Sequence record: MN850590.1
Origin: Escherichia phage moha
Direction: 5' to 3' (one strand)
Length of the DNA: 64,000 nt
A program made the position numbers and the translations under genes. Shown in pieces: positions 2,185-48,489 of this stretch; position 1 is the stretch's first letter; each line of letters begins with the position of its first letter. The notes under the pieces were generated by a model. That model was given only the letters and a program-made list of their open reading frames with translations. It was not told where the DNA came from and made no database searches.

Positions 2185-3753
2185 TTAGATGCCTTTTACA
2201 TATACACGGCGGAAGTAAGCGTTCTTACCAAGGCTGTTCAGGATAGATGGCATACCGGACTGGATGCGAGCACCTGGAGCCTGCAGGGAACTTTCAGCAA
2301 ACGGGTTAACACCGATACCGTAACGAGTTTTAAAGCCCATTACCGGCTGGAAGTTCTTAGGATCGGAACCACGCAGCGGGGTAAGTGCAACGTAAGGAGC
2401 ATAGTAAATACCTGCATCCATTTCGTTAGCGCCTTTGTAACCAACGGTGAAGTAATCCTGTTTAGCATACTGGTCGATGTATACGCGGTATTTACCACCA
2501 AGTACACCGGCAAATACAGACTTAGTAGTGTCGGTATTAAAACCAGAAGCCAGGCCCTGTGCAGCGTAAGAAATACCAGTATCAACTGAAGCCAGTACGT
2601 TAACTACGTTACGGGAAGCGATAATGAAGTTACCTTCACCACGACCGGTTTGACGAGCAATTTCAACTGCTTCTTTATCAATCTGGAACAACAGAGATTT
2701 AAAGCTTTCACCGGCCCAACGAGCACCACGGATATCAATCGGGTCCTGGAAGTCAAATACACCAGCTTTAGAACCCGGAGTCAGGGTCATACCAGATTTA
2801 CCAACCTGTGCTGAGTAGTTAATCCAATCAACAACTTCACGGTTGATTTCTAGCATAATTTCTGTAGCCAGAATACCGCTCAGTTCAGCATCAGCATCCA
2901 TACCGTGTACTGCACGGAGGTCTTGTGCTAATTCGATAGAGTAAGCAGCTTTCAGCTGGCGAGATTTAGCTTCGATAACTTGTTTATCGATACGGAAGCC
3001 CATTTCATTCCATGGGTTATCGGTAGAACCGTTGAAACCTTCCTGGAGTTCAGCGATAGAAGTAGCCATACCTTCAGCGATTTCTACCAGTGCACCAGCT
3101 TCCATTTGTTTCTTAACTTCTGCATCTAATTTAGCTGCATCAGTTGCACCAGAATCAAGTGTTACGACAGCAGAAGCTTGCAGATATACAGTACCAGTTT
3201 CTTGGAAGAAGTGAGTATAGATATCACCTACAACAGTAGTAGTGTCAGCAGCCAGAGCTGGGAATTTCTTAGCAGCACCCTGACCAGAGAACATCGCGTC
3301 TGGGGCATACATCGGATGGAAAGCTTCTTTAGCGCCAGCAGCGATAGGGTCTTTACCATATACTGCACGGAGAGCAAATACCTGACCGGTCGGGCTGTTC
3401 ATAGGCTGAACACCACAAATATCAAAAGCGATCAGATTAGGAATAGCACGACGAACCATACCCATAACTGCCGGCCCAATTTGGGTTACTGCACCAGAGG
3501 TTTGACCTGCTGCGATGTTCTGAGCATTATAACCATGGTCACCACCAATTTCAGCTTCGGTCAAGAAAGAACCAAATGCCTGAGCGATTTTCTCGTCTTT
3601 ATATTCAGGGGATACTTCGAAATCTTTTTCCTGGTTTTCGAAGATTTTAGCGATAATAGCCTGCTTGCTATTAGCGATTTCCGGCAGGCCTTCACCTTCC
3701 AGCAGTTCTTTCCATTTGTCTACGAGCTGAGCTTTAGTTTTGATAGTAGTCAT
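2185..3753 (-). CDS. 23: major capsid protein gp23
   Basis: 522-aa ORF; the translation is recognisable as T4 gp23 and the length matches (T4 521 aa). Confidence 0.97.
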   Translation of the reverse strand: MTTIKTKAQLVDKWKELLEGEGLPEIANSKQAIIAKIFENQEKDFEVSPEYKDEKIAQAFGSFLTEAEIGGDHGYNAQNIAAGQTSGAVTQIGPAVMGMVRRAIPNLIAFDICGVQPMNSPTGQVFALRAVYGKDPIAAGAKEAFHPMYAPDAMFSGQGAAKKFPALAADTTTVVGDIYTHFFQETGTVYLQASAVVTLDSGATDAAKLDAEVKKQMEAGALVEIAEGMATSIAELQEGFNGSTDNPWNEMGFRIDKQVIEAKSRQLKAAYSIELAQDLRAVHGMDADAELSGILATEIMLEINREVVDWINYSAQVGKSGMTLTPGSKAGVFDFQDPIDIRGARWAGESFKSLLFQIDKEAVEIARQTGRGEGNFIIASRNVVNVLASVDTGISYAAQGLASGFNTDTTKSVFAGVLGGKYRVYIDQYAKQDYFTVGYKGANEMDAGIYYAPYVALTPLRGSDPKNFQPVMGFKTRYGIGVNPFAESSLQAPGARIQSGMPSILNSLGKNAYFRRVYVKGI

Positions 3754-16559: not shown

Positions 16560-18142
16560 TATTTTACCTTAATGATATAGTTTAAAGAAATATTCCATGG
16601 ACGAGTTTCATTTCCAATTAATTCTGGACGATTCATGGTATATTTAGAGTTACGCTGAGACGCTGGATCAATTTCATATCCTTCGTTAGTAAAATATGAA
16701 CGGTTATCCCAGTCAAGTCCTTTACGAGTACCAACAAAGTTTGAACGACGAGTATTACCAAATGCACCGGAATCGTCATGTTCGCCAAAACCACCAGCAT
16801 GCTTATGATACGACATCTGTTGTTTTTGCACTTCACCGACATATCCACCGGTACAACCTACCGCCAGACGAGGCTTACCGAATTGGTCATTACCATTAAC
16901 ATTAGGGTTAGTTAAATGGTTACCACGACCTGAGCCGCGAACAAATAATCCACGCATATCAGGCAAGCCCGGGTTAGAAGAGCTACCACCATATCGTGTC
17001 CCAATTCTGGAAGCATATACAGGACATTCTGAAGCAGAAACGGTCCCACCATGACAGAAGCGCCAGTCAGAACTCGGTAAACTATCTGCAGCCCACATTG
17101 TAATAGCGCCAACTGGAAGAATTCGGTCCAATTCATTTTGAGTCACAATACGATTGCCTTGAATATAACCACCGGTCATATTGACATTACCAGTTATATT
17201 AGCTCCACCAGAACCAACCGTCAACGTATTATTAATGCGAAGCGTGCCATTAATAGTTTGTCCACCTCGTTGGTGGATAACATCAGCATTCCAAGCAAGG
17301 GCAGAAGAACCATCACCACCTGATTGGTTACCCGCTTGTGTAGTTAAACGAACAACTCCACGTAAAGAAGTTGTAGCCCCACGGCCGTTTAATGTTGCGC
17401 CGGTCACTACAACTGAAGAGTTGTTACTATTTACTTCAGTCTGTGTCCCTAGTTTAACGACACCTTTATTAGTTTCTGATGCTACTGAATTCATAAAGGT
17501 ATAAGGTGAAATTGCATAGCCTTCACGCAGGGTGCCTTGTTGTGCTTGAGCAACTGTAGCCAAACGAACAACACCGGTAATAGATTCGGTGGCGTCACTA
17601 TTATTTGGAGCAATTTGTGAAATAAGTTTAATTGCTAATTGCTGTGTTTTTAACGGGGTCATTGCCGTTGTATCATCAGAACCAGCTAATGCCGCAGCAG
17701 AAGTTGAAATTTTAATTACACCATTTGTTGCTTCTGTTGACACTTTTGTCTGAAATACATTGTCTATTTTTTGATTCAATTTAAGCGGAGTAATTGATGC
17801 ATCGTCAATAGTTCCTGTTACTGCTTCATCTTCAGTAGCATAACGAGTTAAGCCATATTGAGTTTCGGTTGCATTAGGATATTGTAGACGAGCATTCAGT
17901 GATGCCGGAGTAACAGCTTTACTATTATCTAATCCATCAATAACTTCTTGTGGAGTAGCTATTTGAATAATTCCTGGTGTAGTAGTTGTTGCTTCTGGTA
18001 CACCATTAACACCTGAAGGAGAAATAGCAGCTAATGCGGCTTGGACATTAGTGACTGTATCTGGAAAATTCGACCCCGTAGGGTCGAATTCAACGTAAAT
18101 GGATTCGTTTGAAACGTGTTGGTATGTATTGTTATTACTCAT
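16559..18142 (-). CDS. 12: short tail fibre protein gp12
   Basis: 527-aa ORF, same length as T4 gp12, in the expected position. Confidence 0.9.
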
Positions 18143-36116: not shown

Positions 36117-36191
36117 GGCCCTGTAGCTCAATGGGAGAGCTGTCAGCTCATAACTGATAGGTAGCTGGATCGAAACCAGCCAGGGTCACCA
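36117..36191 (+). tRNA. tRNA with CAT anticodon (Met, or Ile2 if C34 is lysidinylated)
   Basis: Manual fold: acceptor GGCCCTG/CAGGGTC, D-stem GCTC/GAGC, anticodon stem GTCAG/CTGAT with loop CT-CAT-AA, T-stem GCTGG/CCAGC, discriminator A and encoded CCA. Confidence 0.8.
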
Positions 36192-36194
36192 ATC

Positions 36195-36271
<77 letters not shown>

Positions 36272-36634: not shown

Positions 36635-36639
36635 GAAGC

Positions 36640-36944
36640 CGGGTCGCTACCGGCAAGTCGTCGGACTGATGTTCCCTGAGTAAGGACTGGTCTTAATAAA
36701 TCTTTACGATTTGTTAATATCCCCTTACATCACAGCAGAAACGGCGCACCGAATTATCGATTCGAGGAAATATCTTTGCCGTAAGCCGAGTAGCGTTTTT
36801 GACGGAACGTTCGGATATGGTCGAGATATGGCCTTTTAAAAATATTGAGTAGCGTCAACTGCTTAATAACCGGGTTCGAATCCCGGCGTTTCGTACAAAC
36901 ACTTGCCTTAGCAGGTGGAACCCCGACAAGGTTGCCGCAAGGCT
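36640..36944 (+). ncRNA. candidate structured stable RNA region
   Basis: About 300 nt with no credible ORF, containing several hairpins and a canonical tRNA T-arm motif (CCGGG-TTCGAAT-CCCGG at 36870-36886), ending at a strong terminator. Confidence 0.25.
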
Positions 36945-36978
36945 TAGCCCCTTCCGAAAGGTCGGGGCTTTTTGGCAT
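36945..36978 (+). terminator. rho-independent terminator (34-nt sequence repeated exactly at 52157)
   Basis: TAGCCCCTTCCGAAAGGTCGGGGCTTTTTGGCAT: GC-rich stem, GAAA loop, T5 tract. Confidence 0.8.
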
Positions 36979-37018
36979 AATAATAAATAGATAAGTTAAT
37001 TAACTTAGGAAAAGCAAC

Positions 37019-46294: not shown

Positions 46295-46873
46295 ATGAAA
46301 ACATATAAAGAATTTATCGCCGAGGCCTTTGCAGGAAAAGCTCAAGGCATTAATAAGGACGAGTGGAATTATCGTGGCGGAAACGGCTTTGACCCTAAAA
46401 CTGCTCCACTTGAACGATATCTAGCCACAAAGGCTTCTGATTTTAAAGCCTTCGCTTGGGAAGGACTTCGCTGGCGTAACGATTTAAATATTGAAGTTGA
46501 CGGACTTAAATTTGCTCATATTGAAGATGTTGTTGCTAGTAACTTAGACGCAGCTTTTGTTAAAGCCGACAGTGACCTTCGTCGCTGGAATTTAAAACTG
46601 TTCTCTAAACAAAAAGGCCCGAAGTTTGTGCCTAAAGCAGGTAAATGGGTTATTGATAATAAATTAGCTAAGGCTGTCAACTACGCCGGTCTTGAATTTG
46701 CCAAGCATAAATCATCATGGAAAGGTCTTGATGCAATGGCTTTCCGTAAAGAATTTGCCGATGTTATGGCTAAAGGCGGCTTTAAGGCAGAAATAGATAC
46801 CTCTAAAGGTACGTTTAAGGACGCTAATGTTCAGTATGCTTACGCCGTTGCTAATGCGGCCCGTGGTAATTAA
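46295..46873 (+). CDS. internal protein III-like protein with capsid-targeting leader (192 aa)
   Basis: Starts MKTYKEFIAEA; similar in size to T4 IPIII (194 aa). Confidence 0.65.
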   Translation: MKTYKEFIAEAFAGKAQGINKDEWNYRGGNGFDPKTAPLERYLATKASDFKAFAWEGLRWRNDLNIEVDGLKFAHIEDVVASNLDAAFVKADSDLRRWNLKLFSKQKGPKFVPKAGKWVIDNKLAKAVNYAGLEFAKHKSSWKGLDAMAFRKEFADVMAKGGFKAEIDTSKGTFKDANVQYAYAVANAARGN

Positions 46874-46875
46874 TA

Positions 46876-46897
46876 AGGCCTAAGTATAGGCCTATTT
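46876..46897 (+). terminator. hairpin, putative weak terminator
   Basis: AGGCCTA-agta-TAGGCCT followed by ATTT. Confidence 0.35.
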
Positions 46898-47051: not shown

Positions 47052-47591
47052 ATGAGAACATTTTTAACCGGTCCTTATCTATCCCTGATGAATGCTTTTA
47101 CACACCATTCTGATGCTAGAGTAGAAGAAATTTGTAAGAACGGTTATGTCCCACCATTTGAAGACGTACTCAAGCAGTACTGTACACTTCGTTTAGACGG
47201 CGGCAGACAATCAGGTAAATCAATTGCTGTGACTAACTTTGCTGCTAATTGGCTGTATGATGGCGGAACAGTTATTGTTCTTTCTAATACTTCAGCTTAT
47301 GCTAAAATTTCTGCTGGCAACATTAAAAAAGAATTTTCTCGTTATTCTAGCGATGATATTCGATTCCGTTTATTTACTGATTCTGTTCGTAGTTTTATTG
47401 GCAATGAAGGTTCTAAATTCCGTGGATTAACGCTTTCTCGTATTCTGTATATAATTGACGAGCCTATTAAAGCTCCTGATATGGATAAGATTTACAATGT
47501 CCACATTAAAACAGTACAGCACTGCTGCAAAAGCAAATATTGCATCAGCGGTAATGCTCGTCCTCAATTTTTTGTGATTGGAATGCAATGA
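47052..47591 (+). CDS. P-loop NTPase-like hypothetical protein (179 aa)
   Basis: Walker A-like GGRQSGKS and Walker B-like ILYIIDEP. Confidence 0.5.
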   Translation: MRTFLTGPYLSLMNAFTHHSDARVEEICKNGYVPPFEDVLKQYCTLRLDGGRQSGKSIAVTNFAANWLYDGGTVIVLSNTSAYAKISAGNIKKEFSRYSSDDIRFRLFTDSVRSFIGNEGSKFRGLTLSRILYIIDEPIKAPDMDKIYNVHIKTVQHCCKSKYCISGNARPQFFVIGMQ

Positions 47592-47896
47592 TGACCACTA
47601 TTGAAGTTTTTGAGTATTGTTATAACAGCCCAGTATGCAATAAAAGGGCTCTTGTAGAAAATTATGAGATTTACCATTTTAAACCTAAACGATATCGTTT
47701 GACTAAAGGTCCGTTCGCAGGGCAGCAGGTTCTTTGTACTGCTCCTAATGCACGGTTGATGACTAGTATTCCGCATTTCAAAATGGAATTTATTGATGGG
47801 CCATTTAAGGGATTAATCACTCAAAGTTTAATGGCATTTAATTCCGACCCATTTTTGATTAAAGAAAAATCTTGGATAAATTTATTTTCTAATTGA
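47588..47896 (+). CDS. hypothetical protein (102 aa)
   Basis: ORF with start overlapping the upstream stop. Confidence 0.5.
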   Translation: MMTTIEVFEYCYNSPVCNKRALVENYEIYHFKPKRYRLTKGPFAGQQVLCTAPNARLMTSIPHFKMEFIDGPFKGLITQSLMAFNSDPFLIKEKSWINLFSN

Positions 47897-47902
47897 GGTT
47901 AT

Positions 47903-48265
47903 ATGAAAGCATATCAAATTCTTGAAGGTGCACATAAAGGCACTATTTATTTTGAAGACGGTACTCAAGCCCGGATTATTGTCTCTAAGACTTTTAAAGA
48001 AGACGCTATTGTAGACCCGGAAATTTTCTACGGTTTGAATGCCCGTGAAATTGAAATTGAACATCAACCTAAAGTTAAAATTGAAGGTGGTCAACACCTG
48101 AACGTTAACGTTCTGCGTCGCGAAACTCTGGAAGATGCAGTTAAGCATCCGGAAAAATATCCGCAGCTGACCATTCGTGTATCCGGTTATGCAGTTCGCT
48201 TTAACTCTCTGACTCCGGAACAGCAGCGCGACGTTATCGCTCGTACCTTTACTGAGAGTCTATAA
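47903..48265 (+). CDS. GrcA/YfiD-like autonomous glycyl radical cofactor
   Basis: 120-aa ORF with the glycyl-radical motif RVSGYAV near the C-terminus; the C-terminal roughly 60 codons are GC-rich with host-like codon choice. Confidence 0.8.
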
Positions 48266-48489
48266 TGGCTAAATTGATTATAGAAGGGTCTGAAGATGTT
48301 TTAAAATGTTTTGCCGCCTGGTTTAGTTGCTCAGGCGAGCAATCATTCACTGAAGCATTTAGAATGGGTGATATTACTGGAAACTATCCGACAACTGATA
48401 TCACTGTACGTGGATATGGTATTAATGAGCCTATCCAATTGGTCGAATATGACCTTGCCACCGATGAGGAAATTCCTTATGTCGATTGA
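48265..48489 (+). CDS. hypothetical protein (74 aa)
   Basis: TAATG overlap with the upstream gene. Confidence 0.5.
   Translation: MAKLIIEGSEDVLKCFAAWFSCSGEQSFTEAFRMGDITGNYPTTDITVRGYGINEPIQLVEYDLATDEEIPYVD

Follow-up and report, generated by a model that had tools for sequence, protein, structure and literature searches.

How a gene of a virulent T-even phage comes to carry a segment that looks like the DNA of its host is the question raised by vs.6, a small gene of Escherichia phage moha. T4 and its relatives break down the chromosome of the host, and the usual view is that little exchange takes place between the two. A review of T4-related genomes found few clues on the agents of lateral transfer into these genomes (PMC2993671), and the accessible papers on T4-family genomics say of vs.6 no more than that it is a conserved ORF containing a Gly_radical domain (PMC1524935). 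The window that we analysed is a stretch of 64,000 nucleotides from sequence record MN850590.1 and belongs to an RB69-like T-even phage (Mosigvirus). A preliminary description had singled out the ORF at 47903-48265 as GrcA-like and had suggested that its 3' half was a recently acquired, host-derived segment fused to a phage-type N-terminus.

This ORF, on the + strand at 47903..48265, was identified from the ORF list and from alignment with RB69 and T4 as vs.6, the ortholog of T4 Y06I. It is 99.2% identical in DNA to RB69 vs.6 and 93.4% identical to T4 vs.6, encodes 120 amino acids, as T4 Y06I does, and occupies the same position between vs.7 and vs.5 as in the RB69 and T4 reference genomes. 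A Shine-Dalgarno-like GAGG motif (47895..47898, +), located 4 nt 5' of the ATG, overlaps the stop codon of vs.7 (TGA, 47894-47896), and the TAA of vs.6 overlaps the ATG of vs.5 (48265). Neither the upstream neighbour vs.7 (47588..47896, +) nor the downstream neighbour vs.5 (48265..48489, +) shows host similarity or a Pfam match. With its own Shine-Dalgarno motif and stop, vs.6 encodes a small stand-alone protein and not the C-terminus of a full-length glycyl-radical enzyme.

The protein matches Pfam Gly_radical (PF01228) at residues 60-101 with 67.3 bits (cut-off 22.2) and E. coli GrcA in the PDB (6owr) over residues 21-120 (E 2e-42). The NCBIfam model for the autonomous glycyl radical cofactor GrcA (TIGR04365, spare_glycyl) aligns to residues 18-120 of 120 with 159.1 bits, which is below the equivalog cut-off of 170 because the N-terminal half is diverged. 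The glycyl-radical motif RVSGY lies at residues 92-96 (48176..48190, +); in an alignment to GrcA and PFL residues 696-759, its Gly95 (GGT, 48185-48187, +) falls on the glycine that bears the radical in GrcA and on G734 of PflB. The C-terminal 60 residues, RVSGY included, are identical to those of E. coli GrcA. The N-terminal half, in contrast to bacterial GrcA, is strongly diverged, with four indels, and the seven residues that differ between the 120-residue proteins of the window and T4 all fall within the first 60. The preliminary description had the ending of the ORF exactly right, and it was right both that E. coli GrcA ends in the same residues and that a T4 homolog rescues oxygen-damaged pyruvate formate-lyase (PFL). 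In the account of Wagner et al. 2001 given in PMC8683613, PFL-activating enzyme activates both T4 Y06I and E. coli YfiD/GrcA, the two "spare part" proteins validated by experiment, and oxygen-cleaved PFL regains activity through either protein. Because the C-terminal 60 residues are identical and this function was shown for the T4 ortholog, we infer that vs.6 encodes an autonomous glycyl-radical cofactor of the GrcA/YfiD type, a putative "spare part" for host PFL. Its product would be activated by the host PFL-activating enzyme, dock on oxygen-cleaved host PFL and restore its activity.

Composition was the original ground for regarding the 3' half as host-like. The described GC-rich stretch of about 180 nt is real, as GC is 0.356 at 47903-48079 versus 0.478 at 48080-48265, but it is not unique: the mean GC of the window is 0.381 (sd 0.039), 0.9% of 186-nt segments are as GC-rich as 48080-48265, and 13 separate regions of the window reach its value. 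Codon usage gave a similarly divided result. Among the codons named as unlike the phage, CTG (5/5 in the 3' part versus 0.10 in a background of 52 long phage ORFs) and CCG (3/3 versus 0.17) are atypical, as are CGC (3/6) and CAG (3/4), but CGT and GAA are favoured by the phage too. The codon-adaptation analysis that the preliminary description had proposed did not single out the tract: scored as a whole against the codon table of the phage, it stood at the 31st percentile, no outlier. Composition by itself is suggestive and is no unique marker of the 3' part of vs.6. Other GC-rich islands, with 186-nt GC of 0.51-0.54 and thus equal to or above the vs.6 tract, were seen at 2176-2521, 3134-3573, 16811-17152, 36638-36988 and elsewhere. 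Those inside 36001-61000, the vs.6 tract excluded, have no match in E. coli genomes, and those in 1-36000 may be highly expressed late genes.

Nucleotide comparison with host grcA was far more informative. By megablast, 175 of 175 nt at 48081..48255 (+) are identical to grcA of E. coli D9 (NZ_CP010152.1, 3314378-3314552). This is the longest exact run; it comprises 57 identical codons plus flanking identical bases and encodes residues 61-117, the glycyl-radical domain. None of the 57 codons differs from E. coli D9 grcA, all synonymous sites included, and when 25 kb of the window (36001-61000) was compared with 5,426 complete E. coli genomes, nothing but the tract gave a match. GC is 50% in the tract and 35% in the 5' part. 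The identity extends beyond what protein conservation would give, and the proposal of a recently host-derived 3' segment holds to the level of a present-day E. coli allele. Its extent, given earlier as 48080-48265, was approximately correct, but the true bounds are 48081-48255 and the last 10 nt are phage-type. This phage-type 3' end (48256..48265, +) carries the tail GAGAGTCTA, and each of the last three sense codons (48254-48262) has a synonymous change, with GAG AGT CTA in the window versus GAA AGC CTG in the host. On the other side lies the old phage-type 5' part (codons 1-60, 47903..48080, +), a diverged GrcA N-domain that differs from E. coli grcA mainly by non-synonymous changes and by its indels, and that is 89% identical to T4 and 75% identical to Klebsiella phage LilPanda. 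Among codons for residues conserved with the host, 10 of 17 are changed in the 5' part versus 0 of 57 in the tract (Fisher p 3e-8); in the tail, 3 of 3 are changed.

The tail codons form a patchwork among phages (T4, GAA AGT TTG; L097, GAG AGT CTG; L099, GAG AGC TTG), which could come from an edge-of-homology effect or from constraint by the overlapping start of vs.5. With an identity of only 79-79.5%, pflB was rejected as donor of the tract. Assembly contamination was also rejected, because ~640 independent phage genomes have the tract in frame within the ORF. None of the deposited phage genomes is 100% identical to the tract of the window, the best match being 99.4%. Queries with the vs.6 or T4 tract found up to 21-22 match places in some E. 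coli genomes, with a median of 2-3 (grcA, pflB and other paralogs). A scan for promoters and terminators yielded nothing beyond chance that bears on the tract.

The same 57 residues can be encoded very differently. In Pseudotevenvirus (Cronobacter phage leB and the IMG/VR loci L105-L107) they are retained in full, and only 143-146 of 171 nt are shared with any bacterium; against E. coli, 143/171 are shared, with 28 synonymous differences. Among bacteria, the tract of grcA shares 167/171 nt with E. coli in a sister species of Escherichia, 156/171 in Citrobacter and 142/171 in Salmonella (29 differences). The tract of the window and that of the host also have the non-optimal codons AAG, CAT, TAT and GTA in common, which indicates identity by descent and argues against convergent codon usage. 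Judged by these distances, protein constraint is not the explanation of the tract's identity, and the phage tract falls within the range of variation found among alleles of E. coli itself. RNA structure gave no sign of constraint either: the tract RNA folded no better than shuffles (z -0.87), as did the non-converted version of the Cronobacter phage (z -0.63), and an Rfam search of the vs.6 region found no family.

We also asked what the 5' half is. When residues 1-60 alone were compared with an HMM derived from 67 distinct N-termini of bacterial GrcA, the score was 20.6 bits (E 3e-5); the best of 1,600 shuffled controls reached 6.2 bits. The NCBIfam and PDB alignments likewise reach back to residues 18-21. 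Since a GrcA N-domain, though a diverged one, already makes up the 5' half, we read the event as replacement and not as fusion; of the fusion suggested initially, the host segment stands, and the unrelated N-terminus does not. The vs.6 gene thus appears to be an old phage homolog of grcA whose 3' part was overwritten by host DNA, most likely recurrently.

Evidence on how often this happened comes from other phages. The tract of T4 is also identical to E. coli grcA at 175 of 175 nt, and the allele that it matches is the major one: of the 5,426 genomes, 5,156 have it at ≥99% identity. The allele of the window is a minority allele, found at ≥99% identity in 1,254 E. coli genomes. The two phage tracts differ at two synonymous sites (48121, C/T; 48175, T/C). 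Overall, T4 and the window differ at 19 of 180 nt in the 5' part versus 2 of 171 in the tract (p 1.6e-4). We rejected the high T4-window identity as a stand-alone argument, as a 90-nt stretch of vs.8 is also 99% identical. That stretch (47225-47314), whose surroundings are 80-90% identical, is another local island of identity between the genera.

Seven sampled E. coli alleles are polymorphic at 48094, 48121, 48175 and 48184, and all four sites also vary in a set of nine phages, where the alternative bases are those of E. coli. On the assumption that any of the 57 third positions could vary, such a coincidence has a chance of ~2e-4, a value that comes from seven host and nine phage sequences and could be inflated if few synonymous sites are free to vary. 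By haplotype, the window corresponds to E. coli D9, and T4, L095 and L097 carry the major type. The haplotype of RB69 is the ABW_S38 type plus one private change, and that of L099 contains the non-preferred codon TCA, also found in ~485 E. coli genomes, plus one private change. L094 and L098 have alleles with two changes absent from every E. coli genome. These private changes imply that the tract also mutates within phage lineages and, at one or two per allele, that conversion is too infrequent to erase all phage mutations. The private change of the RB69 reference (L002) lies inside the tract at window position 48110 and is non-synonymous (GTT to ATT, V70I).

In total, ~640 phage records, from T-even phages isolated on Escherichia, Shigella and Yersinia, carry the E. 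coli-type tract at ≥95% identity. A neighbour-joining tree of the tract placed the E. coli-type phages inside Escherichia in 300 of 300 bootstraps; the five converted phages never formed one clade, and all phages were grouped together in 0 of 300. Phylogenies of the two segments are incongruent, for the tract groups with hosts and the 5' parts of the window, T4 and Jiaodavirus share 73-89% identity and can be aligned to hosts as protein only.

The preliminary description had proposed aligning the T4 homolog to see whether the composition boundary is shared. It is common to T4 and, beyond that, to Klebsiella phages. In Jiaodavirus, whose members infect Klebsiella, the 5' half is phage-type (73-75% identical to T4 and the window) and ends at the same junction, ...AAAATT / GAAGG..., with GC of 0.35 before it versus 0.57-0.59 in the tract. 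This tract has Klebsiella-type residues (LLDAVEH) and shares 157-163 of 171 nt with Klebsiella grcA versus 146-149 of 171 with E. coli; phage-type sequence is back ~20 nt before the stop. Some 110 phage records, nearly all of Klebsiella phages, are ≥95% identical to one K. variicola allele. The grcA alleles used for comparison, from K. variicola and two metagenomic loci of the Klebsiella cluster, match the Klebsiella-type tract at 94-97.6% and never at 100%, and in the tract tree Jiaodavirus joins Klebsiella in 143 of 300 bootstraps. Tract content therefore differs by host, E. coli-type or Klebsiella-type, at a common boundary, which points to repeated events and not one. At least two exchange events are indicated, one for each type at the same junction, and the haplotype matches to four E. 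coli alleles suggest further events within the E. coli type, in a small sample.

Karamvirus, Slopekvirus, Pseudotevenvirus, Krischvirus and T5-like phages show no recent conversion, though they infect the same hosts; they carry old, ameliorated versions with 42-50% GC and 76-85% identity to any host. A Salmonella-type tract was absent from the phage collection (best phage match of the Salmonella allele, 87.6%), and an Enterobacter-type tract was not found there, the best full-length phage matches of the Enterobacter allele being Klebsiella phages at 93%. The Yersinia-isolated Tequatroviruses fPS-2 (H78), phiD1 (H91) and PST (H95) have an E. coli-type tract (97.7-98.9%), of which the grcA tract of Yersinia shares 144/171, and Salmonella phage PSE-D1 (H116) has a Klebsiella-type tract. 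Tract type thus reflects the lineage or usual host of the phage more than the host of isolation, and host tracking is coarse.

Taking these results together, we consider it quite probable that host grcA overwrites the tract of vs.6 by recombination, that the tract is a self-maintaining island of homology, and that the tract of the window is a copied minority allele of E. coli. In the proposed course of events, the 5' half of an old phage grcA homolog would diverge freely, and protein constraint alone would keep the 3' part ~80-85% identical in DNA to host grcA. In the infected cell, this residual homology would open the way to homologous recombination or gene conversion between phage DNA and pieces of the host chromosome, and each conversion would reset the phage tract to the allele of whichever host was infected. 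The identity gained in this way would ease further conversion, so that the "homology island" would maintain itself. The edges of the tract would be fixed because homology stops there. The 5' edge would be the domain boundary, beyond which, on the upstream side, the DNA of host and phage can no longer be aligned, and the 3' edge would fall ~10 nt before complete divergence, where the start of vs.5 overlaps the stop of vs.6.

Recombination of the required kind is familiar from the laboratory. During infection, T4 can take part in recombination with homologous sequences that have been cloned, and tens of base pairs of homology suffice (marker rescue). The resemblance lies in the action of phage recombination enzymes on non-phage DNA with short homology, as the proposed step needs; the difference is that marker rescue involves laboratory crosses with plasmids carrying phage DNA, and the donor to vs.6 would be a native chromosomal gene in natural populations. 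For vs.6 the recombination itself is read from patterns in the sequence and is to that extent putative.

A stronger form of this proposal is that vs.6 is a standing homology island under recurrent conversion, through which phage and host populations share polymorphisms and haplotypes. The chances for and against this form seem to us about equal. If it were true, vs.6 would offer a natural case in which recombination of the host chromosome with a strictly lytic model phage can be quantified, and the phage would have a built-in means by which its spare part stays matched to the local host PFL system.

The most serious alternative is that a single recent transfer from host to T-even phages was followed by phage-to-phage spread through Tequatrovirus, Mosigvirus and relatives, with a separate single event in Jiaodavirus, and that the shared variants arose in parallel, by mutation at a small number of mutable synonymous sites. 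Several observations fit this scenario: T4, the window and Jiaodavirus have an identical 5' junction, T4 and the window have short islands of 99% identity elsewhere too, phage alleles have private mutations, and tract type tracks phage genus and not isolation host. It accounts poorly, however, for two phage genera that match different present-day E. coli alleles at 175/175 nt each, for the third (RB69) and fourth (L099, TCA codon) haplotypes that also match E. coli haplotypes, and for the coincidence of all 4 sampled host polymorphic sites with phage ones (p ~2e-4, with the assumption and sampling given above). In addition, RB69 is reported (PMC6024577) to be unable to recombine with T4. We regard a single transfer as unlikely, and phage-to-phage spread of a converted tract may nevertheless contribute to the pattern alongside repeated conversion by host DNA.

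It could also be argued that exchange ran in reverse or in both directions, with phage vs.6 alleles being written into grcA of E. coli or Klebsiella in survivors of infection. Shared polymorphism gives no direction by itself, and two-way host-phage exchange was inferred for cyanophage psbA (PMC1484495). Nevertheless, the GC content (0.50 in the E. coli type, 0.58-0.59 in the Klebsiella type) and codon usage of the tract match the hosts and not a phage of 35-38% GC, and host tract distances follow bacterial relatedness through E. coli, Escherichia sp., Citrobacter and Salmonella. Infection by a virulent phage, moreover, normally kills the cell. Because tract GC and codons follow the host, distances follow bacterial relatedness and infected cells normally die, the host-to-phage direction is favoured, and writing of phage alleles into hosts is very improbable.

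Least probable of all, and barely credible to us, is a single ancient acquisition with 3' identity preserved by extreme purifying selection on protein, codon usage or RNA structure: the glycyl-radical domain must indeed fit host PFL and PFL-activating enzyme, the tract protein is nearly invariant across phages and hosts, and many of its codons (GAA, GGT, GTT, CGT) are favoured by phage and host alike, but 28 synonymous positions separate E. coli from phages that encode exactly these 57 residues, Salmonella differs from E. coli at 29 positions, non-optimal codons are held in common with the host, neither the RNA fold (z -0.87) nor Rfam offers a structure, and Klebsiella phages have Klebsiella-type synonymous states.

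Replacement of phage sequence by host sequence has its closest known parallel in psbA and psbD of T4-like cyanophages (Zeidner et al. 2005; Sullivan et al. 2006, PMC1484495), which are likewise host-derived metabolic genes in T4-like phages. There, patchy %G+C and segments clustering with host alleles were read as exchange of segments between host and phage (PMC1484495). As for psbA, the case for vs.6 includes identity in excess of protein constraint, phylogenetic incongruence, coinciding patchiness of GC and more than one exchange event. Unlike psbA/psbD, vs.6 has a single block with sharp, conserved edges and 100% identity to specific alleles of present-day hosts, the phages concerned are the classical virulent coliphages, the sequence at the same junction is of E. 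coli or Klebsiella type according to genus, and the sharing of polymorphism is visible at the level of alleles. In the searchable literature (grcA, yfiD, Y06I or vs.6 together with phage), no description of the mosaic at the DNA level was found, and an earlier mention is possible. The vs.6 protein and its function were already known, and the unusually clean host-phage mosaic in the DNA seems to be new.

As a concrete and experimentally tractable case, in a virulent phage, of putative homologous exchange with the host, vs.6 could help to measure the natural frequency of such exchange and to define the recombination functions that it requires. There are practical consequences as well. The tract is the only phage segment in 36001-61000 liable to cross-hybridise, cross-map or cross-amplify with E. 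coli DNA, and it is relevant to read binning, host-contamination filters, assignment of CRISPR spacers and a PCR marker for Straboviridae. Phage "grcA" was used as such a PCR/qPCR marker in a 2026 paper (PMC12845203, Table 3), with the forward primer in the phage-specific 5' part and the reverse primer at the 3' end; because of these primer positions, the amplicon spans the host-identical tract.

Several further observations were made on grcA-like genes outside the converted phages. In Salmonella phage Kenya-K44 (L092, T5-like; 58-303, 320-688), a GrcA-like gene of 122 aa lies directly 3' of tRNA-Ile and tRNA-Met genes and is of the old ameliorated type, with ~76% identity to any host tract. 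Klebsiella sp. WOUb02 has a copy of grcA on the 275-kb plasmid unnamed4 (L026). An enterobacterial-type grcA, 91% identical to that of E. coli, was found in a genome labelled as the Gram-positive Vagococcus sp. WN89Y (L034) and is probably the result of contamination or mislabelling. Elsewhere in the window, a perfect palindromic hairpin, AGGCCTAAGTATAGGCCT, at 46876-46893, between the ORF at 46295-46873 and vs.8, is terminator-like on both strands, and two adjacent tRNA genes are located at 36117-36188 and 36195-36268 on the + strand (Rfam tRNA, 59.4 and 71.1 bits).
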